From Thermodesulfobacteriota bacterium (GTDB lineage Bacteria > Desulfobacterota > WTBG01 > JAGOGO01), in NCBI GenBank assembly GCA_026625185.1, contig CP113000.1, forward strand, positions 180,001 to 212,000: DNA of 32,000 bases, in the 5' to 3' direction. This document shows, piece by piece, positions 846 to 27,991 of this stretch. Position 1 is the stretch's first letter; the number at the start of each line of letters is the position of its first letter. The notes beneath the pieces were generated by a model that did no database searches, was not told where the DNA came from, and worked only from the letters and a program-made list of their open reading frames with translations. The translations under genes were made by a program, and so were the position numbers.

Positions 846-2573
846 TCAGACCGCGGCACAAAGAAGTTCCCGGTCTTTAAACCGCACATACCCGCTATGA
901 GTAATGCGAAGATGAGGGATAGCAGCAGTCCCAAGAACATCAATCGTAAGGAGCGGGTTTGCCCAGGGCACCCCATTACCCTGCAAAGCGGTTTCAAGTT
1001 TTTTAATCTCTTTCCCTAACACCTCCATGGGTTTTAAAGAGGCCATACCGCACAGAGGAGCTGGAAATTCAGCAATCACTTCATTGCCAATAGCATACAC
1101 TGCTCCGCCGTTAATTTCTTGTAATCTTCCCACGACGGTCTCCATGGATTGCCGGTCACATCCTGCAATGATCATATCAACTGAATCCCAGCAAATGGTG
1201 GAACCACATGCTCCTCGTTGCAAACCAAAGCCCTTAAGAAAACCCAGGAATTTCTCTCCGCTTCCAAGCCGGTTTAAGGCAAGAAGCATGATAACATCCC
1301 GGGCTGTTTCCGGGTCTTTCAAATCCACCACCCGTTCTCTGGTAACTAACCCCGTAACAAGATCCATAACCCGGACCTTCCCTTCTTGAGGTCTCATCGG
1401 GAAGTCAAAGCCATTCAAGGCAACTGTGTGAAACATATACTCAGGGCAGGAAACCTTTTTTGGTTCGGTCAGGTTGCGGCCATACTGAAAAATTATTTTT
1501 CCATTACACATAACTATTTGAGGTGAATATTCCTTTGGTGAAGGTATGAGCACTATATCAGCCATTTTTCCGGGAGCAAGAGACCCGATAAAGTTATCCA
1601 GATGGAAATGTTCAGCTACATTAATCGTTACCATCTGAAAAGCCACTTCCGGCGGAACACCAAGACTGAGAGCTTTTTTCAGCCCGGCATCAAGAAACCC
1701 TTTTCTGATGAATCCTTCGGGATCCGAGCCGTCAGTGGTTAATGTTAATTTTCGAAAATCAATATCCTTGGTGAAAATATTTTTTATTGCCTCGAGCTCT
1801 TCCCTTACAGCGCCTTCCCGGATCATTACCCAATACCCAAGCCGCAGTCTTTCCAAAACCTCCTCTTCTGTGGTCGCTTCATGACAGGAGGAAACGCCAA
1901 AATTGGTATATGCCTGAAGCCTTTTCCCTTTTGCGCCCGCAGAATGCCCCTCAATCGGCTTCCCCAGAGCCAATCCTAGGTCCGCCAGTTCTCTTACCCG
2001 CTCTCCCTGCGGGCCATCTAAAAACAGATTGCCCCAATAAATTTCACCCACTCCAACACATTGGGATTTCTTCAAAAGTGGCAGGAGCTCTTCATTCGAA
2101 GGAATGTTCGTTTCCTCAGAGGAGGTGAGTCCACAGTGCGGACTGACCGTATAGTAAAACCGTATTGGCTGGCCTTCAAGACCTTTTACAAAACACTCAA
2201 TGCCATCCTTCCCAACGATAGTGCAAATTCCAATGGTTTCGGTAATAACAGTAGTAACGCCCGAAGGGATGACATACCGTACAAACTCTTCGATACCACA
2301 GCGGTTCATCACGTGGGCGTGCCCTTCAATAAGGCCGGGGAGAAGAACCATCGCCTGCGCATCAAGGATGGTCGTCTCCCGATCCCGGTTAAAGTCAGTT
2401 TCCGGGCCCACATAGGCAATCATTCCATCTTTTATCCAGACCGACTGTCCCTTTATAAACTCCCGGGTGAAAACATTAAAGATGGTAGCATTGGTTATTG
2501 CCGTATCAAGAGGTATAATGCCTAAAACCACGTCGCTAAGGATTTTGCTTTTCCATTTAATCTCGTATTCCAT
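846..2573 (-). CDS. ade: Adenine deaminase-like amidohydrolase
   Basis: Long ORF of the size and layout of AdeC-type adenine deaminases (~576 aa), with the N-terminal beta-sandwich and the metal motif LPGLIEGHAHV. I moved the start to ATG 2571-2573, which has GGAAGGA 8 nt upstream, rather than the ORF-track start at 2645. Confidence 0.65.
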   Translation of the reverse strand: MEYEIKWKSKILSDVVLGIIPLDTAITNATIFNVFTREFIKGQSVWIKDGMIAYVGPETDFNRDRETTILDAQAMVLLPGLIEGHAHVMNRCGIEEFVRYVIPSGVTTVITETIGICTIVGKDGIECFVKGLEGQPIRFYYTVSPHCGLTSSEETNIPSNEELLPLLKKSQCVGVGEIYWGNLFLDGPQGERVRELADLGLALGKPIEGHSAGAKGKRLQAYTNFGVSSCHEATTEEEVLERLRLGYWVMIREGAVREELEAIKNIFTKDIDFRKLTLTTDGSDPEGFIRKGFLDAGLKKALSLGVPPEVAFQMVTINVAEHFHLDNFIGSLAPGKMADIVLIPSPKEYSPQIVMCNGKIIFQYGRNLTEPKKVSCPEYMFHTVALNGFDFPMRPQEGKVRVMDLVTGLVTRERVVDLKDPETARDVIMLLALNRLGSGEKFLGFLKGFGLQRGACGSTICWDSVDMIIAGCDRQSMETVVGRLQEINGGAVYAIGNEVIAEFPAPLCGMASLKPMEVLGKEIKKLETALQGNGVPWANPLLTIDVLGTAAIPHLRITHSGYVRFKDRELLCAAV

Positions 2574-3026
2574 GATCAACATCCTTCCCTTCAAAGGGAC
2601 CGGCTCAGTGAGGCAAGCCGGCAAAAATATTCCCCTTTCGTGCATTTATTGGTGAACTTATGAAATTACCTAATTTTTTTATTGGGTGATACTACTAATT
2701 TGTAACCTAAAGTACATTCAGATAAATTTATTTAAAATTATTATTCTATTTTTACTATCTTAAATCAAGAGGAAATCAAAAGACCGTTTTTTTAATAAGT
2801 TACCCGGCATCACCCGCTCATCCTTTATTATTGATGAAACCGTAAAATTATTGCGCTCTGGTATAAAATCAGTCCGCTCGACACCGTGCCCGAGGCATTA
2901 AAAGTGCTGGAAAATTAATCCGCAGAAGTAAAAGGATAAAATAAACTCTTTGAAATCAATGGCTTTTGCCTTAGCGGCAGTAGTTCCGTTTGTGCTGATC
3001 TTATGTCTGGTTTTCAAGAGGTGAGG

Positions 3027-3455
3027 TCATGGCTTTGTACTATCCAAAAGCTCCGTCTCGTCGAGCTTCCAGAGACCATCTTCCAGGACCAGATGTTCTA
3101 TGTTGTGCTCTATCAACCCATTTTTATTACATTCGTCCCGGGAATTGACAACACTGTTCACTTGGGCTTCTTGCCCCGAAACCAGTCCGGGAGTGGCGGA
3201 AACCTCAGTAATCGCTACCTTACCAAATTCAAACATTTTTTTCGTAGTCTCAGCCCACTCTTCCTTGCTTTTATCATTGAGCATTTCCCGAGAAACGCAC
3301 TCAGAAGCCCCTTTGTAGTCTTGGTTTTGCAAGGCATGATAATACTTAAGAACTACCTCACAAGGAGTCAAGCTACCGCTCCAGGCCGCATTCAGGAAAA
3401 AAACAATCAAAGAAAATACCGCTGCCAAAGTAATGCTCCATTTAAATCTTTTCAT
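3027..3455 (-). CDS. Secreted NTF2-like/DUF4878-like small protein
   Basis: Start at ATG 3453-3455 with GGAGG 5 nt upstream. The N-terminus MKRFKWSITLAAVFSLIVFFLNAAWS looks like a signal peptide. It is followed by PCEVVLKYYHALQNQDYK, typical of NTF2-like/DUF4878 proteins. Confidence 0.55.
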   Translation of the reverse strand: MKRFKWSITLAAVFSLIVFFLNAAWSGSLTPCEVVLKYYHALQNQDYKGASECVSREMLNDKSKEEWAETTKKMFEFGKVAITEVSATPGLVSGQEAQVNSVVNSRDECNKNGLIEHNIEHLVLEDGLWKLDETELLDSTKP

Positions 3456-3875
3456 AATGCCTCCCTCATGAAAAATTTGTATTGTCAAACACCTCATCAG
3501 CAACAGTACGCCTCTTCCGCCACCTTCGGTTACTATTAAACCATAAAAAGCGACAGGACACAATTTTTAACCAAAAACCAATGGCTTTCCATCTTCCGCC
3601 TCAGACGCTATCTGGGTCGGAAGGCGCCAAGTTTGGGAAAATTTATAGCGATAAATCTGACCATTAAGTATGATGAAAAGATAGGGACGGGTTACCGCAT
3701 TAAAGTGAGCGGTTTTACCAAAAAAAATGGTTCAAGTCCTGTTTGTTTCAAACCAACAGCATAGATGAAATGGTTACTTGACAATTTTCCCAATTTCAAT
3801 TAAGGATATACCCAAGCGCGCAGTGCGTTGAAAAATTACTAAAAAGGTGTTTGAAAATTTTTTTTGGAGAAACCG

Positions 3876-5830: not shown

Positions 5831-6925
5831 TTAAAAATTGAATTTAAAGGTGATGATATCGCCATCGCAAACCTCATAGTCGCGCCCCTCTAAGGCAACC
5901 ATTCCTTTTTCGCGGGCCGCGGGTAATGATCCGGCAACAATAAAATTTTTATAGTTAATCACCTCGGCCTTTATAAAACCTTTTTCCATATCCGAATGAA
6001 TTTTGCCCGCCGCTTCGGGGGCCTTTGTGCCTTGCACTACGGTCCACGCTCTTAATTCCTTGCTCACGACCGTATAAAAAACAATAAGGTTAAGCAGATG
6101 ATACCCTTCGGCCACAAGCATTTCTAAACCGGATTGTGGCAGCCCATATTCCTTAAGAAATTCTTTTTTTTCCTCTTCTCCCAGGTCTTCGAGTTCAGCT
6201 TCTAATTTTCCACAAATGGCAACCACTGGGGACTTTTCCTCGGCAGCAACCTGGATCACTTTTGCCCGGTAAGTTTCCTCTTCTTTGCTTTTGTTTTCTG
6301 ATATATTGGCAACATATAAAACCGGCTTGGAAGTAAGCAGCTGTGGGTCTTTTAACCCTTTCGTCAATCCCGCAAGCGTGGGCATGCCCCGCACCGGAAT
6401 CCCGTTATTGAGACCCGCTTCGATTTCTTTCAGTATTTCCAATTCCTCCCGATACCCTTTTTCACCAACCCTCGCCAGTTTTTCGATTTTGGTTATCCTC
6501 CGCGACACTATTTCGAGGTCAGCCAGCAAAAGTTCGGTATTCACCATATCGATATCCCGGCGAGGATCGATCGTTTCTCCTGGGTGGGAAACATTTTCAT
6601 CTTCAAAGCATCGAACCACATGAAGCAGGGCATCAACATTGCGAATATGGCTTAAAAACTGATTACCCAATCCTTCTCCCTGGCTGGCTCCTTTCACTAA
6701 ACCGGCAATATCCCAGATCTCCAACGTGGCCGGAATAGTTTTCTTTGGCTGGATAAGTCGGGCAATTTCCTTTAGACGGAGATCGGGGACAGGTGCTATC
6801 CCCTGATGAGGCTGAATGGTGGAAAAGGGATACGAAGCAACTTCTGCTTTAGCAGCAGTGAGGGCATTGAAAATAGTTGACTTGCCCGCATTGGGCAAGC
6901 CAACTATTCCACATTTAAAACCCAT
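5831..6925 (-). CDS. ychF: Ribosome-binding ATPase YchF
   Basis: MGFKCGIVGLPNAGKSTIFNALT P-loop and a full-length (364 aa) YchF/OLA1 layout with a TGS-like C-terminus. Confidence 0.95.
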   Translation of the reverse strand: MGFKCGIVGLPNAGKSTIFNALTAAKAEVASYPFSTIQPHQGIAPVPDLRLKEIARLIQPKKTIPATLEIWDIAGLVKGASQGEGLGNQFLSHIRNVDALLHVVRCFEDENVSHPGETIDPRRDIDMVNTELLLADLEIVSRRITKIEKLARVGEKGYREELEILKEIEAGLNNGIPVRGMPTLAGLTKGLKDPQLLTSKPVLYVANISENKSKEEETYRAKVIQVAAEEKSPVVAICGKLEAELEDLGEEEKKEFLKEYGLPQSGLEMLVAEGYHLLNLIVFYTVVSKELRAWTVVQGTKAPEAAGKIHSDMEKGFIKAEVINYKNFIVAGSLPAAREKGMVALEGRDYEVCDGDIITFKFNF

Positions 6926-14387: not shown

Positions 14388-17057
14388 TTAGGGAATAACT
14401 GAGGTCTCCTCTGGCTTTACTATGAGAAGGGTATATTTATTAAGGTCTAAATATTTTTTTGCCGCTCTTTTTACATCTTTTACAGAAACTTTAAGTATTT
14501 TATCAAGGTAACTCTCAGAATAATCATACCCCAAGCCATAGCGTTCGTTGAATCCCATATCTGCAGCTATAGACGCATTGGTCTGGTGTTCGATGCTAAA
14601 ATTTCCCACCAAATAGTTTCTGGCTCGTTCTAATTCTTGCGGGCTTACTTTTTCCTCGGTAATCTTTTGGATTTCTTTTTTTATTCCATCAACGGCTTTT
14701 TCCACTTTGGAAGGTTCACAGCCAATATAAAAAGCAATATATCCCGGGTCAATCCCCTCCCAAGCAAAGGAGGTTACCACATATGCCAAGCTCTGTTTAT
14801 CACGAAGCTCGGTAAAAAGTCTTCCTCCCTGACCGGCAAGAATTGTATTTAACACCTCCAAGGAATGCTTATCAGGATTTTTTATATCTACCCCGAAAAA
14901 TCCCAACATTACCTGGGCTTGGGCTTTTTCCCCTTGTTTTATTTCTTTTTGGCGGGAAACAGCAGACGGTGATCCTTGAGATACTGTTGGGTAGGCACAA
15001 GTCAGACCTGAAAATCCATGAAAAAGAGCCTCGACCATTTTCTTAACGTTATCTGCCTTCACATCTCCCACAATAGTGATAACCAGGTTTTTGGCTCGCG
15101 CCAAGCTGCCATAGTATTCCTCCAACTCCCGGGAGGTAAGTTTGCTCACAACGTCTTTCGTTCCTAAAGAATCCATCCCATAGGGCTGGTTTTCAAAAAA
15201 GAAAGCATCAAAATTTTTGCGGATAAAAGAAAAAGGTTGATCTTTCTCCTGGTCAATGGCGGCTATAATATCTGCTCGTTTCTTCGGTAACTCTTCTTCC
15301 GGGAAAGTAGGGTTGATAATAACATCGGAAAATAAGTCTAAGCCCTGATCCAAAAACTGACTTAGGATCGTGCAGGAAACTCCGAAGCTGTTCCGCCCTG
15401 AAAATCCGTTCACCACTCCGGCCATTGATTCAATTTCCTTGGCAATTTCGAGCGCTGAACGCTTCTTCGTTCCCTTCGTAAGCATTTCAGCAATAAAATT
15501 GTTAATTCCATTGTTATCTTTTTTTTCAAAGCGAACCCCGCCCAAGAAAACTGCCTGCATTGAAACAATCGGTAAATTCCGATTTTCCCGAACAACCAAG
15601 GTTATTCCGTTGGGCAAAATAAATTTTTGGGTTACCTGATAAGGAGTGGTCAAAGCCAATACAGACGGCTTTCCCCGCTGAGGAATTGATTCCCTAATCC
15701 CCTCGTATGTTATAGGAGAAGTCTCCTTTGCCGGAACAAGCAGTCCGATGGTAGCGTTTTGGGGAGTAAGATATTTCTGCGCTACTTTGATAATATCCTG
15801 AGCAGTTACCTGATTTACCCGTTCCACATAGGTTTGTTCAAAAGCCACATCTCCCATAACAGATTCAAAATAACCGAGTTGACGCCCTTCGCCCTGGATG
15901 GTTTGTTGACTATAGATAAAATCGCTTGTCAGTTTTAGCTTGGCCTTTTGAATTTCTTCTGAAGACGGTGGTTCATCCTGAATCCGGTAAAGCTCTTGAA
16001 AAATTTTTGTTAAGGCGGGCTTAGCCTTATCCGCCTCCAACAGGCATCCGATCATCATGACCCCGGGATCCCTGGGAGTATATGAAGAAGCATTAATAGA
16101 GTGCACCACCCCTGCTTCCGCCTTTACCTTTTGGTACAGGCGGGACGATTCACCATCCCCCAGGATGGACGCCAGCAGATCCAGCGGATAAAGATCATTA
16201 TGGCTAACCGCTGGTATATGAAACGCCATTTCAAGATACGTTTTCTGCACATCTTCCGACAAAATAACGCTCCGCATTTCTCTTTGTGTCGGCTCGGCAG
16301 GCCGGTTTGGATTTCCCGTCATATGAGAAGTAAAATTCAAAAAGGCTTTTTTTATGGAGTCCAACGCCTCGTCGGATTTAAAATCTCCGGTTACCGCCAA
16401 TACCATGTTATCCGGAGCGTACCATTTACGAAAATATTCCATGGCCTTTGTCCGATCAAAACTTTGCACCGTCTTTTGAAAACCGATGATCGGCCGTTGA
16501 TAAGGATGAACCGTATAAGCAGCGGAAAAAAGCGCTTCATCAAGCTTGGTCGAAGGCTGATCAGTCCTCATTCTGACCTCTTCCAGCACAACTTCTTTCT
16601 CTTTTCTAAGTTCTTCGGGATCAAAGGAGGAGTTTTGAATCGCATCCGCTATAATATCCAAGCCGGAAGAAAAATATCGATTCGGGATCACCAGATAAAA
16701 GACGGTCTGGTCATAAGAAGTAAAGGCGTTGATCTCCCCTCCGGCCGTCTCGACCTCCCGGGCGATTTCGCCTACTTTCCTTTTAGCTGTGCCTTTAAAA
16801 AGCATATGTTCAATAAAATGTGTTATGCCCGCCTCTTTATCCTGTTCATCCGCGCTGCCGACTTTAATCCACATTTGAAAGGAGACAAGGGGAGAAGAAT
16901 GGTTCTCTTTTAAAATTACGGTTAAGCCATTATCCAAGGTATGCTTCTGGATCGGGGAATTTCCCCAGCTCGGCATTACCCACAACATGCTAACCCATGA
17001 GGTTAAACAAAGAATTATCCCTTTTTTAACCGAGGGAAAAAAGAACCTGTTTCGCAT
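14388..17057 (-). CDS. Tandem M16-family (pitrilysin-like) zinc peptidase, secreted
   Basis: 889 aa with an N-terminal signal-like segment. The first M16 unit has the HxxEH motif (GITHFIEHMLFKGT). The second unit lacks the His residues (NNFIAEMLTKGT), as is typical of fused active/inactive pairs. Confidence 0.9.
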   Translation of the reverse strand: MRNRFFFPSVKKGIILCLTSWVSMLWVMPSWGNSPIQKHTLDNGLTVILKENHSSPLVSFQMWIKVGSADEQDKEAGITHFIEHMLFKGTAKRKVGEIAREVETAGGEINAFTSYDQTVFYLVIPNRYFSSGLDIIADAIQNSSFDPEELRKEKEVVLEEVRMRTDQPSTKLDEALFSAAYTVHPYQRPIIGFQKTVQSFDRTKAMEYFRKWYAPDNMVLAVTGDFKSDEALDSIKKAFLNFTSHMTGNPNRPAEPTQREMRSVILSEDVQKTYLEMAFHIPAVSHNDLYPLDLLASILGDGESSRLYQKVKAEAGVVHSINASSYTPRDPGVMMIGCLLEADKAKPALTKIFQELYRIQDEPPSSEEIQKAKLKLTSDFIYSQQTIQGEGRQLGYFESVMGDVAFEQTYVERVNQVTAQDIIKVAQKYLTPQNATIGLLVPAKETSPITYEGIRESIPQRGKPSVLALTTPYQVTQKFILPNGITLVVRENRNLPIVSMQAVFLGGVRFEKKDNNGINNFIAEMLTKGTKKRSALEIAKEIESMAGVVNGFSGRNSFGVSCTILSQFLDQGLDLFSDVIINPTFPEEELPKKRADIIAAIDQEKDQPFSFIRKNFDAFFFENQPYGMDSLGTKDVVSKLTSRELEEYYGSLARAKNLVITIVGDVKADNVKKMVEALFHGFSGLTCAYPTVSQGSPSAVSRQKEIKQGEKAQAQVMLGFFGVDIKNPDKHSLEVLNTILAGQGGRLFTELRDKQSLAYVVTSFAWEGIDPGYIAFYIGCEPSKVEKAVDGIKKEIQKITEEKVSPQELERARNYLVGNFSIEHQTNASIAADMGFNERYGLGYDYSESYLDKILKVSVKDVKRAAKKYLDLNKYTLLIVKPEETSVIP

Positions 17058-17181
17058 TGTGTGCCTCTGATTTAAAATAATGAAAAATTGACGATTTTTC
17101 AGATAGACTCTTTAACAATAAAGAAGGTTCTAAAAAAACAGTAAAAACTTCCTCGCACCCCGTTCCTTGGCACCTCGCCCC

Positions 17182-17412
17182 TTATTTCCAAAACACCTGC
17201 TCCTGATCTGCCTGATTCCAGGAACCATTGTGGGCTTGTTGTTCCTTTGGTTGCTTCTTTTCCTGCAATTTGTGGATAAACCGGGGGGAGACTTTCTTTA
17301 TGGGTAGGAGAGTATTAATATTTTTGGAAAAAATCAAGGTAATAGCGCAGCCATTTTTTATACATTCACTAAAAACTATTAGGAATTGCCCTGTTTCGTA
17401 AATATTCTTCAA
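17182..17412 (-). CDS. Hypothetical 76-aa ORF (weak)
   Basis: Open frame with a TTG start, no Shine-Dalgarno sequence (the upstream is C-rich) and no motif I recognise. Listed only because it occupies an otherwise empty ~600-bp spacer. Confidence 0.2.
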   Translation of the reverse strand: MKNIYETGQFLIVFSECIKNGCAITLIFSKNINTLLPIKKVSPRFIHKLQEKKQPKEQQAHNGSWNQADQEQVFWK

Positions 17413-17674
17413 ATATTGCCGGTAACGCGGGAGGGATGGTCAGCATGAAGAATTCTTCCCCTTCTGTATATCCTGAAAATTGATATGATATCCAGAAGGA
17501 CAAAATAAATGGTTGCAAAAAATTGTCAAGGAATTAATTTTTATAGCAATGAATTTAAAGGAGATAAATAGTATTGGGAATTGCCGGTTAGAAAAATCCA
17601 AACAAAATTTTTGTTTATGTTTCCAAAAGAACCCCTTGTGTTAGGGAGATAGACAGAAACTATAGAATAACTGG

Positions 17675-17704
17675 TTCCCCCCCCCCGCTTCGTTCCGGGG
17701 GGAA
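17675..17704 (+). repeat. C10 homopolymer inside a TTC(n)...G6AA hairpin
   Basis: C run at 17677-17686 (10 C) and G run at 17697-17702 (6 G). TTCCCCCC can pair with GGGGGGAA around a GCTTCGTTC-type loop. This is the longest G/C homopolymer in the window. Confidence 0.9.
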
Positions 17705-17808
17705 TGCGGCAGTTTAGCAGTAAACTCCTGATTTCCCCTTCGCTCCGCTACGGGGAGAACTAGGAGTTGGAGACAGATGCCCTTCGGGCACTGCTCAACT
17801 GCCGCATT
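17703..17808 (+). other. 106-nt inverted-repeat element predicted to fold as a three-way junction (unclassified RNA or DNA structure)
   Basis: P1: AATGCGGCAGTTTAGCAG (17703-17720) pairs with CTGCTCAACTGCCGCATT (17791-17808), 18 bp with one T/C mismatch and the outer 12 bp perfect. P2: AACTCCT (17723-17729) with AGGAGTT (17762-17768), extended by TTTCCCC (17732-17738) with GGGGAGA (17752-17758, one G.U). P3: TGCCC-TTC-GGGCA (17778-17790). The element ends 20 nt before the ORF start at 17828. Confidence 0.5.
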
Positions 17809-17827
17809 GAACGAGAGGATTTGAGTA

Positions 17828-18520
17828 ATGTGCGAGAGTGCTGATCTGAAACGTGTGAATGGCGTTATTGCCCGCTTCTGCCACGATGTCGTCGCGGAGC
17901 CCCTATGCTTTTTCTCGGAAGCAGATCTTCAGAGCATGCTGTTTGCGAAACTTTCAATGGAGTTCCCGGAGCAGATAGAGACATCGTGCTCCAGAGGACC
18001 GGATTCAAAAGGAAAGTACAAGGCTGGTTTGGTCCACCGCGAGTATGGCGCAGGAGGGGGACGCAGGATAGATATTTCGGTGTTCGATCCTGACGATGTT
18101 GCGCGTATTGATGAAGTCACTCTTAAGACTGCCGGCAAGTACATTAAACCTCGCTTCGCTATCGAACTCGGAACAGAGAAATCATTAGATGCAACTGGCC
18201 AAATCAGCAGAGATCTCGACAAGCTGGCCGATGCAACTGAGCGAGGGTATCTCATTCATTTCTTTCGCGACACGAGCCGTTCGGCAGTGGGCACAGGAAG
18301 GAGAGAGAACAAAGAGCAAAGCATCGAATCGAAGTTTAGGAATCCGGTCAATAAGGCTAAGGTTCCTCAGAAAGTCCGCAGCTTGTTCTTCTTAATTCGA
18401 GTTGCCCGAAGGCAGAAAAAAATCTGGGGAAAATGCGAAATGTATTTGCCTGAGACTGGCAAGTGGCAGAAGGTCAATCTACAAAATGTATGCAGTTGCG
18501 TGGCAGAACGCTTGCGCTGA
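17828..18520 (+). CDS. Orphan 230-aa protein with PD-(D/E)xK-nuclease-like motif arrangement (function unknown)
   Basis: Uninterrupted 690-nt frame with ATG preceded by GAGAGGA ~11 nt upstream. The motif order is reminiscent of restriction-endonuclease-fold proteins: FFSEADLQSML (E31), GGRRIDISVFD (D82), RFAIELGTEK (E113, K118), then DLDKLADATERGYLIHFF. The canonical ExK is not exact (ELG..EK). Confidence 0.6.
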   Translation: MCESADLKRVNGVIARFCHDVVAEPLCFFSEADLQSMLFAKLSMEFPEQIETSCSRGPDSKGKYKAGLVHREYGAGGGRRIDISVFDPDDVARIDEVTLKTAGKYIKPRFAIELGTEKSLDATGQISRDLDKLADATERGYLIHFFRDTSRSAVGTGRRENKEQSIESKFRNPVNKAKVPQKVRSLFFLIRVARRQKKIWGKCEMYLPETGKWQKVNLQNVCSCVAERLR

Positions 18521-18526
18521 TAATGT

Positions 18527-18573
18527 GCCAACCACCGCTTGCACCCCATTCGGGGTGAAGCGGATTGTTGGGC
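18527..18573 (+). terminator. Composite hairpin 6 nt after the ORF stop (no U-tract)
   Basis: CCGCTT-G-CACCCC (18535-18547), ATTC loop, GGGGTG-AAGCGG (18552-18563): 12 bp with one bulge. It is enclosed by CCAAC (18528-18532) pairing with GTTGG (18567-18571). It is followed by GCATGAG, not a T-run. Confidence 0.3.
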
Positions 18574-18722
18574 ATGAGAAGGTATTACAACCAAAATGAT
18601 CATAGGTGACCTTAATACAGAGATAGTGACAGCACAGCTCAATCTCTTATTCGGCATAGAGTCGATTTTTAAGAGAAGGGGCAGAATCGTATCGAGCTGC
18701 GAAGACATCGGCCAACTCCTCT

Positions 18723-18920
18723 TTGATCCTACACCATATGATGCCATTCGAACCCTATTACCCCATGTTCCATTCGCACTCATTCAGGCGAGTGGTGAGC
18801 CTCGTAGCAAATTTTCAAAAAGCGATATCACTTGAAGAGATCGTAACTAAATTCCCCGACCTGAAGACCGAGAGGATCAAAGACATTCTGGATAAAGCGG
18901 TTACAGCTGGTTGTTCCTAA
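18723..18920 (+). pseudogene. DUF433-like (antitoxin-type) degenerate ORF
   Basis: The C-terminal part RRVVSLVANFQKAISLEEIVTKFPDLKTERIKDILDKAV aligns by eye to the DUF433 pattern (GTRIPV..IL..L..G.S.EEIL..YP.L..EDI.AAL.YA). The N-terminal DP....GKP..GTR part is not recognisable. There is no SD, and the only starts are TTG 18723 or ATG 18738. Confidence 0.35.
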
Positions 18921-19005
18921 TCATAAGGAACTTGACAGGGGTACATTAAGAGCCATTTTAAGGCAAGCAGATTTAGGGATCGAAGAACTTCTAAAATTAT
19001 TATAA
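18865..19005 (+). pseudogene. HicA-like toxin C-terminal fragment
   Basis: The frame open only from 18865 (after TGA 18862-18864) reads RPRGSKTFWIKRLQLVVPNHKELDRGTLRAILRQADLGIEELLKLL*. This matches the HicA pattern GSH...VP.H..k.L..GTL..IL.QAgL. There is no ATG/GTG/TTG upstream of the conserved part, and it overlaps the DUF433-like frame by 56 nt. Confidence 0.5.
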
Positions 19006-19084
19006 ACTCCCAAATCAGTTTACCGGATTCTTTAAGCCGTCGCTTTTTCAAAATGTCGTCCATCAGCAACAATGACTTCAATAT

Positions 19085-19528
19085 TCATTTCTGTTTCTCA
19101 GAATGAGCAATTTTGTCCAGAATACCATTGATAAAAGAAGCGGATTTTTCAGCGCCAAATTTTTTCCCCAATTCAATGGCTTCGTTTATGCTCACTTTAG
19201 AAGGAATATCATTACACCATAGGATTTCAAAAATTCCCATTCGCAAAATATTTCGATCTACTGATGAGAGCCGATCCAAAGCCCAATGCTCTGAATAATT
19301 CTTTAAAAGCTGGTCTATTTCCCCCTGGTATTGTCCGACTCCTTGGACCAAACGGTTGGTAAAGTCATCTGCTGTTCTGTGGGAGGCAAGGTTGGTAAAT
19401 AACAAAGGAACAACTTTTTTCCCCCGCTGGTTGGTAAATTCCATTTGGTAGAGAATCTGCAAGGCAAGTTCTCGTGATTTTCTTCGACTGGTTGCCAATG
19501 TATAATTTTTAGATTTAAAAGAGCTCAA
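19085..19528 (-). CDS. nusB: Transcription antitermination factor NusB
   Basis: SRRKSRELALQILYQMEF... ends in a typical NusB C-terminus, and the gene sits directly downstream of ribH as in many bacteria. The start is uncertain: TTG 19528 or TTG 19498. Confidence 0.9.
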   Translation of the reverse strand: MSSFKSKNYTLATSRRKSRELALQILYQMEFTNQRGKKVVPLLFTNLASHRTADDFTNRLVQGVGQYQGEIDQLLKNYSEHWALDRLSSVDRNILRMGIFEILWCNDIPSKVSINEAIELGKKFGAEKSASFINGILDKIAHSEKQK

Positions 19529-19626
19529 AAACAGGGAGCGTTAATGAAAAGCAAAAAGATTACCTGAGGGATCAACCTAACCCCGCAAAACAAACGTAAT
19601 TCTTATTGCTAACCCCAATGAGATAT

Positions 19627-27139: not shown

Positions 27140-27239
27140 ATACCTCTTCCTGTCCGTAAAACGTAAATTGTAAGTCGTGAAGCGTGAAAGGTAAAAAGTT
27201 CAATACCGAGTAGAAGTTTTAAGTCTAACTTTTAAGTTT

Positions 27240-27289
27240 TAAGGGTTAAGATTTAATCTTACCTCTTAAAACTTAACCCTTTTCTTTTC
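27240..27289 (+). terminator. Rho-independent terminator-like hairpin 18 nt upstream of mazG
   Basis: AAGGGTTAAGATTTAA (27240-27255) pairs with TTAAAACTTAACCCTT (27265-27280): 16 positions with one A.A mismatch and a 9-nt loop, followed by TTCTTTTCC. The left flank carries TTTTAAG-type heptamer reiterations. Confidence 0.5.
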
Positions 27290-27307
27290 CTTAATAAAGG
27301 TTATGTT

Positions 27308-27991
27308 ATGGAAAAAGCTGAAAAACTTTTTAGAGATTTAGTATTTCTTATCCGTACATTAAGGGGTGATGGAGGGTGTCCCTGGGATAGAAAACAAACA
27401 ATTGAGACCCTGAAATACTATCTCCAGGAGGAATTTCAAGAGTTTATTGAGGCATTAGAAAAAAAATCTCCAGAGAAAATTCAGGAAGAAATGGGTGATT
27501 TAATTTTTCTGCTTCTTTTTTGTGCGGAAATTGCACGCGATGAAGGTAATTTTAGTATTGGGGATGTGTTGGAAAATGTAAAAAAGAAGATGGTCGGCCG
27601 TCACCCCCATGTTTTTGAAGGCCGGGAAGCAAATAATATTTTTGAAATCAGAGAGAATTGGCAAGAGATAAAGAAAAAAGAAAAAGTCATAGCTTCACAA
27701 CGCACCCTGAAAGAAAAACTCCCCCGTCATCTTCCTGTCTTACTTCAAGTCTACTGGCTAACGAAGCGTTTAGGGGAGAGTACGTCTCCTTTAAAGGTGA
27801 TGGAGAAAATGGAAGCAGAGACTACAAAGCTTAAAAAGGAATTAATTGACGAAAACCAAGAGATGGTAAAGCAATGCTTAGGAGATATCTTTCTTGATTT
27901 AGTTAACCTCAGTCGGTTCATAAAAGTTAATCCCGAAGCGTTGTTAAGAGAATCCCTAATGAAGCGCATTCAAGAAAACTTTGGGGTTTAA
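27308..27991 (+). CDS. mazG: MazG nucleoside triphosphate pyrophosphohydrolase
   Basis: GCPWDRKQT, EEFQEFIEA and EEMGDLIFLLLF; 227 aa. Confidence 0.9.
   Translation: MEKAEKLFRDLVFLIRTLRGDGGCPWDRKQTIETLKYYLQEEFQEFIEALEKKSPEKIQEEMGDLIFLLLFCAEIARDEGNFSIGDVLENVKKKMVGRHPHVFEGREANNIFEIRENWQEIKKKEKVIASQRTLKEKLPRHLPVLLQVYWLTKRLGESTSPLKVMEKMEAETTKLKKELIDENQEMVKQCLGDIFLDLVNLSRFIKVNPEALLRESLMKRIQENFGV

Follow-up and report, generated by a model that had tools for sequence, protein, structure and literature searches.

Single attC sites lacking an integron integrase (SALIN) and clusters of such sites (CALIN) are terms established in the literature, and both isolated cassettes and integrase-mediated insertion at non-att genome sites have been documented (bioRxiv 10.1101/2022.09.11.507474; PMC4889954). 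Toxin-antitoxin genes are abundant in cassette arrays and constitute hallmark cargo of these arrays (PMC10661359; PMC4889954), and cassettes carrying phage defence genes have also been documented (bioRxiv 10.1101/2024.07.02.601719; 10.1101/2024.07.02.601686). Here, we analysed a 32-kb stretch of DNA from a Thermodesulfobacteriota bacterium (contig CP113000.1, positions 180,001 to 212,000; hereafter the window), in which an islet located between nusB and an M16 peptidase gene carries an intact open reading frame (ORF) of 230 aa, ORF230. With moderate confidence, we interpret this islet (17139-19079) as strain-specific integron-cassette-type material lying outside of an integron, i.e., a SALIN or a small CALIN, which carries a probable defence nuclease.

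The minus strand of the window presents, in this order, riboflavin genes, ribH, nusB (19085-19528), the M16 peptidase gene (14388-17057), dapA and asd. A NusB scan with one genome per species found three related metagenome-assembled genomes (L101, L102 and L103), which were compared to the window. In these three relatives, both flanks share approximately 90-93% DNA identity with the window, nusB is joined directly to the M16 gene, and the sequence running from 19080 to 17138 is replaced by approximately 30 nt (29-31 nt; GAAGAAGGTATGGATAAAATGGGGAACAAAA). The accessory stretch is therefore 17139-19079, and it constitutes a strain-specific accessory insert. The short stretch found in the relatives is an unrelated spacer without a deletion scar. 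An identical islet was seen in contigs from several samples, and the islet is therefore fixed in this population. The initial annotation of this DNA had proposed an accessory stretch between the M16 peptidase gene and nusB and had called for a comparison of this junction in related strains; the comparison bears out the accessory stretch, but the proposed limits (17670-19005) were too short, the islet being approximately 530 nt longer on the left. The features on which our interpretation is built are the following:

17139-19079 (1,941 nt): accessory islet between nusB and the M16 peptidase gene, absent from three relatives
17815-17827, plus strand: conserved ribosome-binding region GAGGATTTGAGTA, which travels with the ORF230 gene; DNA homology to loci L014-L020 starts at 17815
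17828-18520, plus strand: intact 230-aa gene (ORF230) of an uncharacterised family, probably a restriction-endonuclease-fold enzyme
18526-18573, plus strand: attC-like hairpin of 48 nt, directly 3' of the ORF230 stop codon

ORF230 is a real gene under purifying selection and presents a foreign composition. The ratio of nonsynonymous to synonymous substitution rates (dN/dS) ranged from 0.12 to 0.24 relative to six homologues, and the GC content at third codon positions (GC3) was 0.535 vs. 0.37-0.47 in native genes. The atypical codon choice that had previously been noticed by eye was also recovered in the counts: GAG:GAA and AAG:AAA were 11:6 and 10:10 in ORF230 vs. 58:112 and 56:129 in seven native genes. 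The proposed search for homologues yielded 55 proteins sharing 35-100% identity with ORF230, all of which are approximately 230 aa long and lack a Pfam domain, and a profile search of 1.84 billion representatives extended the family to 250 clusters (50% identity) at E <= 1e-3. ORF230 had no match in Pfam, PADLOC 2.0, NCBIfam or PHROGs, and profile searches against PDB sequences, conducted with 51 and with 98 members of the family, returned only noise. Some members of the family are longer: P0059 and P0060 (383 and 371 aa) present an N-terminal DUF6508 domain fused to an ORF230-like domain, and other long members (P0102, P0139, P0144 and others) present N-terminal extensions without a Pfam match.

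The homologues sharing 71-91% identity with ORF230 sit in unrelated neighbourhoods without synteny. Moreover, DNA homology between the window and loci L014-L020 is limited to 17815-18533, which corresponds to the ribosome-binding site, the ORF and 13 additional nt. The mobile unit therefore appears to consist of the gene and its adjoining 3' segment, with flanks that differ among genomes. Several of the close homologues (55-85% identity) are flanked by attC-type hairpins. In L014, the homologue was found among approximately 12 small ORFs encoded on the same strand and separated by hairpins of the form xxxxAAC...GTTAxxx (GCTTAAC...GTTATAC, GTATAAC...GTTAGGT, ACCTAAC...GTTGGGT, GCCCAAC...GTTATGA and TCATAAC...GTTATGG), several of which have the centre GACGC-A(n)-GCGCC in common. 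The homologue itself is bounded by GTTAGGT (-40) and by ACCTAAC...GTTGGGT (+11 to +73). This layout looks like an integrase-less integron cassette array. The region (L014 1-8091) corresponds to ENA ERZ27251135 k141_1941083, and its cargo comprises NucS_C/PDC-S02, AbiJ_NTD4/PDC-S32, HEPN proteins and the ORF230 homologue. Similar sites were found at other loci: the hairpin ACCTAAC-AACGG-...-GCGTTGGGC overlaps the stop codon in L028 and L039, canonical sites end 26-31 nt before the start codon in L025 and L036, and the motif AACCTAAC lies directly 3' of the stop codon in L014, L018, L021, L025 and L028. As to whether a hairpin accompanies the gene in other genomes, attC-type hairpins are found downstream at L014, L028 and L039 and upstream at L025 and L036, and many other homologue loci have none. 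These sequences indicate that the close clade of the ORF230 family is cassette-borne, and we regard its attC-flanked homologues as established. Because no integron integrase was found in any locus, the homologue loci would represent integrase-less arrays or fragments.

Several further observations were made at these loci. L007 (3116) and L008 (6693) encode an identical P0010 protein downstream of the same genes, and the two sequences diverge fully right after the stop codon (TGATAG), which suggests a recombination breakpoint at the 3' end of the gene. L006 (~5880-6000; homologue at 79% identity) and L023 (~615-735; 82%) have in common an upstream block of approximately 100 nt, TTCGATTTTCGAACA...TTGTTGTGATAT.GCCA...AATGATATATGCA, which is absent from the other loci and may represent a promoter or operator region. 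Finally, L006 encodes an integrase-like fragment of 86 aa located 1.7 kb upstream of the homologue, which does not resemble IntI1.

We used two covariance models to compare these hairpins with genuine integron sites. Model R1 was built from eight genuine attC sites of class 1 integrons, whose loops were trimmed and replaced by GAAA, and model R2 was built only from five environmental hairpins located beside homologues, with trimmed loops. Across ten homologue loci, the best match of R1 was the L025 site located 26 nt upstream of a homologue (15.4 bits, E = 0.093). R2 was searched against the window and five class 1 integron regions (91 kb in total), and its two top-ranking matches fell on genuine attC sites of class 1 integrons, namely that of aadA2 and that of a DUF1010 cassette; rank 5 was a further integron site in L111. 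Although each E-value is marginal, it would be very unlikely for these ranks to be obtained by chance. In L111, which served as a class 1 integron control, both models matched a site beside a group II intron reverse transcriptase gene (1633-1682 and 2198-3547). Group IIC introns that target attC sites are known, and the L111 site fits them.

The hairpin that had been reported directly after the ORF230 stop codon is present at 18526-18573 and reads TGCCAAC-CACCG-CTT(G)CACC-CCATTCGG-GGTGAAG-CGGATT-GTTGGGC. It can be parsed into the boxes of an attC site: R'' (TGCCAAC), a spacer (CACCG), L'' (CTT(G)CACC), an 8-nt loop region, L' (GGTGAAG), a second spacer (CGGATT) and R' (GTTGGGC). The register is 7-5-8-loop-7-6-7 with a bulged G at position 4 of L'' and an exact GTTRRRY core. 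A relaxed attC scan of the 32 kb returned this hairpin as its sole match and returned none in shuffled sequences. The hairpin is also the best islet match of R2, to which it aligns over its full length in this register (model positions 1-44). It is not followed by a T-run, and the terminator prediction did not return it. We regard 18526-18573 as a probable attC site, possibly a degenerate one. A strict scanner (RYYYAAC/GTTRRRY with <=1 mismatch and >=6/7 paired positions) missed this hairpin and chose unrelated ones, and it was abandoned for the relaxed version. Elsewhere in the window, an AT-rich hairpin of 84 nt (27223-27306; GTCTAAC...GTTATGT) located just upstream of the ORF 27308-27991 passed the strict attC-box scan but not the later filter on energy per length; it is probably a terminator or a regulatory hairpin.

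The AlphaFold model of ORF230 is confident (predicted local distance difference test of 92.2 and predicted template modelling score of 0.90). Using Foldseek, the best fold match in PDB was BbvCI (E = 0.044, template modelling (TM) score of 0.30), with PaqCI and SfsA also matched, and the best match in BFVD was a cyanophage restriction endonuclease (E = 2.5e-3, probability 0.89, TM-score of 0.30-0.35), with UL24 and RecB-like nucleases also matched. Across 98 members of the family, down to 21% identity, D82 and E113 are the sole invariant residues, while E31, E72, R80, E117, H125, D129 and K132 are conserved in >=90% of them, and K118 does not vary among the 51 closer members. In the model, strand 79-85 carries D82, strand 110-115 carries E113 and helix 31-45 opens with E31, and the order of secondary structures is compatible with an alpha-beta-beta-beta-alpha-beta core. 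E31, D82 and E113, together with a displaced lysine, would map onto the nuclease core of this topology. E31, D82 and E113 would then be the acidic metal ligands, and K118 or K132 would be the displaced lysine completing the site. These predictions suggest that ORF230 is most likely a metal-dependent nuclease with a core of the restriction-endonuclease (PD-(D/E)xK) type. The protein would probably act alone against foreign DNA, with a type IV restriction-like or abortive-infection function; we infer both this nuclease chemistry and the defence role.

The initial annotation had likened the islet to defence or addiction islands, and homologues of ORF230 do often adjoin defence genes. The neighbours include AbiJ-like PDC-S32, NucS-like PDC-S02 and HEPN genes in L014 and DUF433-PIN, Mrr and PLD nuclease genes in L018. 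A scan of 150 neighbours of homologues further identified Cas4-like proteins, Azaca ZacC, type I/II methylases of restriction-modification systems, GmrSD, REase-ARP, mad2 and HEC-06. This association is qualitative. In a distant clade (36-43% identity), a DUF6308 gene was found approximately 90 nt upstream of the homologue in 17 loci, a Cas4/DUF2779 gene was found downstream in 9 loci, and the Azaca ZacC helicase (E = 0) was found upstream in 4-5 loci; ZacC is part of the Azaca system (bioRxiv 10.1101/2025.07.10.664194). A search of the literature on DUF6308 and DUF6508 returned no functional information. It is possible that the distant homologue, DUF6308 and often Cas4/DUF2779 form a multi-gene module that is absent from PADLOC. 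The loci concerned include L049, L056, L064, L066, L067, L071, L073-L075, L083, L084, L086, L088, L094, L098 and L100 (e.g., L073 5225-6678). We propose, only tentatively, that the ~230-aa family is a previously undescribed stand-alone anti-phage nuclease which spread as an integron cassette in one clade and works in the distant clade as part of a conserved module with the upstream DUF6308 protein, often with Cas4/DUF2779 downstream and frequently beside Azaca. The family is a cheap-to-test candidate for a new single-gene defence nuclease.

These observations suggest a possible scenario for the origin of the islet. ORF230 would be a promoterless single-gene cassette in other genomes, and in the window it would have kept its ribosome-binding site and its post-stop attC-type hairpin. 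At least one cassette would have been placed in the AT-rich spacer between nusB and the M16 gene by an integron integrase that acted in trans, either from another locus or from a gene since lost. The downstream hicA pseudogene and the doubtful DUF433-like ORF described below would represent decayed toxin-antitoxin cassettes. Later deletions would have blurred the remaining boundaries, while one selected gene stayed intact. We infer this route of arrival. The attC architecture of the post-stop hairpin and the cassette-borne family, both of which the initial annotation had missed, would supply a mobility mechanism that does not need a local integrase.

Immediately upstream of the conserved unit lies a structured element (17665-17812), whose two main components had been described before and were recovered:

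17665-17718, plus strand: C10/G6 hairpin (core 17677-17702), closed by GAATAAC...GTTTAGC
17703-17808, plus strand: 106-nt inverted repeat with 19-nt arms enclosing two hairpins, i.e., a three-way junction, unique to this genome

The 19-nt arms (AATGCGGCAGTTTAGCAGT) are 95% complementary, and the 171-nt leader has a folding energy of -75.4 kcal/mol (z = -5.3), which none of 200 shuffled sequences equalled. In a relaxed scan, two larger hairpins of this element are closed by AAC...GTT: 17665-17718 (GAATAAC...GTTTAGC) and 17719-17772 (AGTAAAC...GTTGGAG). Different DNA was found upstream of the homologues at 91% (L021), 85% (L014), 82% (L023), 79% (L006), 77% (L018) and 71% (L007) identity, no other copy of the 19-nt arm was found in the window or in the 103 loci, and Rfam 15 returned no match at E <= 1 in 17000-19600. 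None of the homologues examined has the element upstream, and the proposal that the gene works with an RNA component is therefore not supported. The three-way structure is a local feature of this genome located outside of the conserved unit of the gene. We also considered the 106-nt repeat as one attC site and rejected it, as its arms carry GTT...AAC, in the wrong order; permuted attC halves are a further conceivable reading.

The remainder of the islet consists of the following features:

17139-17664: AT-rich left part without a recognisable gene, GC content of 0.376
18367-18783, minus strand: 138-aa ORF without a family match
18596-18835, plus strand: 79-aa ORF with an ATG start, beginning just after the attC-like site, without a family match
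18738-18920, plus strand: 60-aa (60/65) ORF with a sub-threshold resemblance to DUF433, overlapping the hicA remnant in another frame
18811-19054: pair of 15-nt inverted repeats (18811-18825 and 19040-19054) bracketing the hicA remnant
18865-19005, plus strand: hicA toxin pseudogene, with its N-terminal third missing and in-frame stops upstream

The toxin-antitoxin debris reported downstream of ORF230 is real in part. The hicA remnant matched HicA_toxin (PF07927) with 35.7 bits vs. a cut-off of 27 over profile positions 19-58 of 58; it is longer than first described (18865-19005) and is a pseudogene. The DUF433-like frame is more doubtful: its match to DUF433 (PF04255) was below threshold (17.6 bits vs. 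a cut-off of 23.6, E = 0.0036; Pfam) and a search of 5.8 billion proteins with the 60/65-aa ORF returned only itself, and the Joint Genome Institute calls it as a gene (L002 6911-7093). The statement that approximately 200 nt of this region have stops in all frames proved incorrect, as the 79-aa and 138-aa ORFs span the stretch. The 79-aa ORF is probably no gene, or a decayed one. The 15-nt repeats are 93% complementary; chance alone would yield approximately 0.06 pairs of this kind here. Remnants of DUF6308, AbiJ, NucS, DUF433-PIN and HD partners were sought in the islet and nothing credible was found. On the left, the previously reported AT-rich flank was recovered (23.3% GC at 17521-17580), and the ORFs of this part (43-76 aa) had no significant Pfam match. 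Neither the left nor the right part of the islet showed similarity to any fetched locus using blastn and tblastx. On its minus strand, the AT-rich left part also has a good sigma-70-like site (17529 to 17502; TTGACA-16-TATTTT, 10/12), which points toward M16-dapA-asd. This promoter-like site could now drive or supplement the transcription of these genes, which the insertion separates from nusB.

Several results weigh against an origin of the islet from integron cassettes or against a nuclease function of ORF230. Both covariance models are crude, being built from five to eight sequences with artificial loops, and R1 recovered only sites of 60 nt and missed 5 of its 8 own training sites in their native form, which makes it too insensitive as a negative test. 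The post-stop hairpin was not reported by R1, nor by R2 in the 91-kb search. Its R2 match within the islet is weak (9.8 bits, E = 0.24 in 2.2 kb). In addition, its R'' box departs from RYYYAAC at two positions, and only 2 and 3 nt are unpaired in its spacers instead of approximately 5 and 6 nt. There is no canonical GTTRRRY upstream of ORF230, where the window has ATTGAAC / GCTCAACTG vs. GTTAGGT in L014 and GTTACTG in L021, and no attC site is detectable at either end of the islet. The islet also includes ~1 kb of unexplained sequence, approximately 530 nt of it in the left part and 500 nt in the right part. Across the 75 loci of a motif enrichment scan, GTTRGGY was modestly enriched (4 observed vs. 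1.6 expected downstream and 5 vs. 1.4 upstream), and the enrichment of GTTRRRY was not significant (p = 0.23 downstream and p = 0.12 upstream); these signals are weak because the 75 loci come mostly from the distant clade, whose members are not carried in cassettes. As stated in the initial annotation, the islet ORFs had no match to integrase or transposase families of Pfam, including Phage_integrase, and a tblastn search of the window and the 103 loci with IntI1 returned no match at E <= 1e-3. Concerning the enzyme, no Foldseek match reached E <= 0.001 and TM-scores were approximately 0.3. PADLOC had no match for ORF230 or for one distant homologue, and 98 diverse members searched individually against Pfam revealed no recurring family and no consistent nuclease match at E <= 1. 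The PD-(D/E)xK-like motifs that had been proposed therefore stand as conserved acidic residues with weak restriction-endonuclease fold matches, but without the canonical (D/E)xK spacing, the motif being E113-L-G-T-E-K118, and without a sequence-profile match.

An alternative explanation is that the islet is a decayed defence or addiction island of non-integron origin (an old prophage, an integrative and conjugative element or a transposon-borne island) that deletions have trimmed, in which the hairpin would be a terminator or a palindrome resembling repetitive extragenic palindromes and its GTTGGGC a coincidence. The lack of an integrase and of a second clear attC site in the islet, the non-significant model scores of the hairpin, the pseudogenes and unexplained non-coding DNA that fill most of the islet, and the many homologue loci without any attC-like site (e.g., L007, L010 and L013) are all in line with this scenario. 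However, the hairpin lacks the T-run of a terminator and aligns end to end to the attC architecture, attC-type sites, validated against genuine integron sites, flank homologues at 55-85% identity, and we found neither similarity to phage and plasmid collections at the DNA and protein level nor a transposase or terminal repeats. We consider this origin unlikely, albeit worth retaining. It is much harder to reconcile the data with an ordinary core gene of the lineage that was lost by the three relatives: the stable presence of an identical islet in contigs from several samples would fit, but the non-syntenic homologues, the foreign composition and the unrelated spacer without a deletion scar in the relatives make this explanation extremely improbable.

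The upstream element lends itself to two further explanations. It could form, together with the ORF, a self-contained single-gene module that includes an RNA, for instance a cis-regulatory leader, a guide or an antitoxin RNA. The leader is indeed unusually stable (z = -5.3), it ends approximately 15 nt before the ribosome-binding site, and its right arm overlaps the 5' untranslated region that is common to L021 and L014. Yet, the element was lacking upstream of the homologues at 91%, 85%, 82%, 79% and 77% identity, it was unique in all the sequence searched and it had no Rfam match, so that such a module seems highly unlikely. Alternatively, 17665-17812 could be DNA-level debris of attC sites that belonged to empty or lost cassettes nearby, or a small palindromic mobile element similar to miniature inverted-repeat transposable elements inserted next to the cassette. 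We view this as a genuine possibility that falls short of being probable. In both larger hairpins, AAC...GTT closes the stem with the polarity of an attC site, the position is exactly that of the attC site of a preceding cassette, and GTTTAGC and GCTCAAC, present in the 19-nt arms, are similar to the boxes of attC half-sites. In contrast, R2 gave the C10/G6 hairpin and the rest of the element 6.7 bits or less and only truncated local alignments, the order of GTT...AAC in the long stem is not that of a single attC site, and neither a second copy nor an evident target-site duplication was found.

The islet itself is fairly ordinary accessory DNA. If its interpretation as cassette-type material is correct, it would illustrate how integron cassettes can deliver individual genes to the core chromosome in an uncultured lineage of sulfate reducers, at a distance from any integrase, a route that has only recently been shown experimentally. 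Its value resides in an uncharacterised, conserved and confidently folded family found in cassette arrays and defence islands, and in a clean before/after comparison with three relatives.

Relative to described systems, the islet differs from a complete integron, which has IntI and attI next to its cassettes, in that no IntI was found. It also departs from the cassettes of SALIN and CALIN (bioRxiv 10.1101/2022.09.11.507474) by its 48-nt hairpin with an imperfect R'' and very short spacers, which is not significant with crude models, and by the absence of an upstream GTTRRRY, the absence of attC sites at its ends and approximately 1 kb of unexplained sequence. In contrast, it resembles them in presenting a single promoterless ORF with a short leader, immediately followed by an imperfect hairpin with R''/L''/L'/R' boxes and a GTTRRRY core, in a chromosomal intergenic spacer that is empty in close relatives and has no integrase nearby. 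The toxin-antitoxin cargo and the homologues found in attC-bounded cassettes and in a cassette array further add to this resemblance. The hicA remnant differs from the HicA toxin of HicAB systems by its missing N-terminal third, its in-frame upstream stops and the absence of a following hicB, but resembles it with a match above the curated cut-off over positions 19-58. Compared to PD-(D/E)xK nucleases, including single-gene type IV enzymes and the type IIS enzymes BbvCI and PaqCI, ORF230 has no Pfam or PDB sequence-profile match, a TM-score of approximately 0.3, no normally spaced triad and no methyltransferase partner, and its activity is predicted only. What it has in common with these nucleases is a fitting helix-strand order, invariant acidic residues on two strands (Asp D82 on one and Glu E113 on the core strand that follows), a conserved Glu starting the first core helix (E31), restriction endonucleases as best fold matches, and defence-gene neighbours. 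Finally, relative to the integron cassettes known to carry phage defence genes (bioRxiv 10.1101/2024.07.02.601719; 10.1101/2024.07.02.601686), the defence function of ORF230 is only predicted and its family is absent from PADLOC 2.0. The likeness lies in a compact single-gene cassette of unknown function, whose product has a nuclease-like fold and which, in one array, has AbiJ-like, NucS-like and HEPN cassettes as neighbours.

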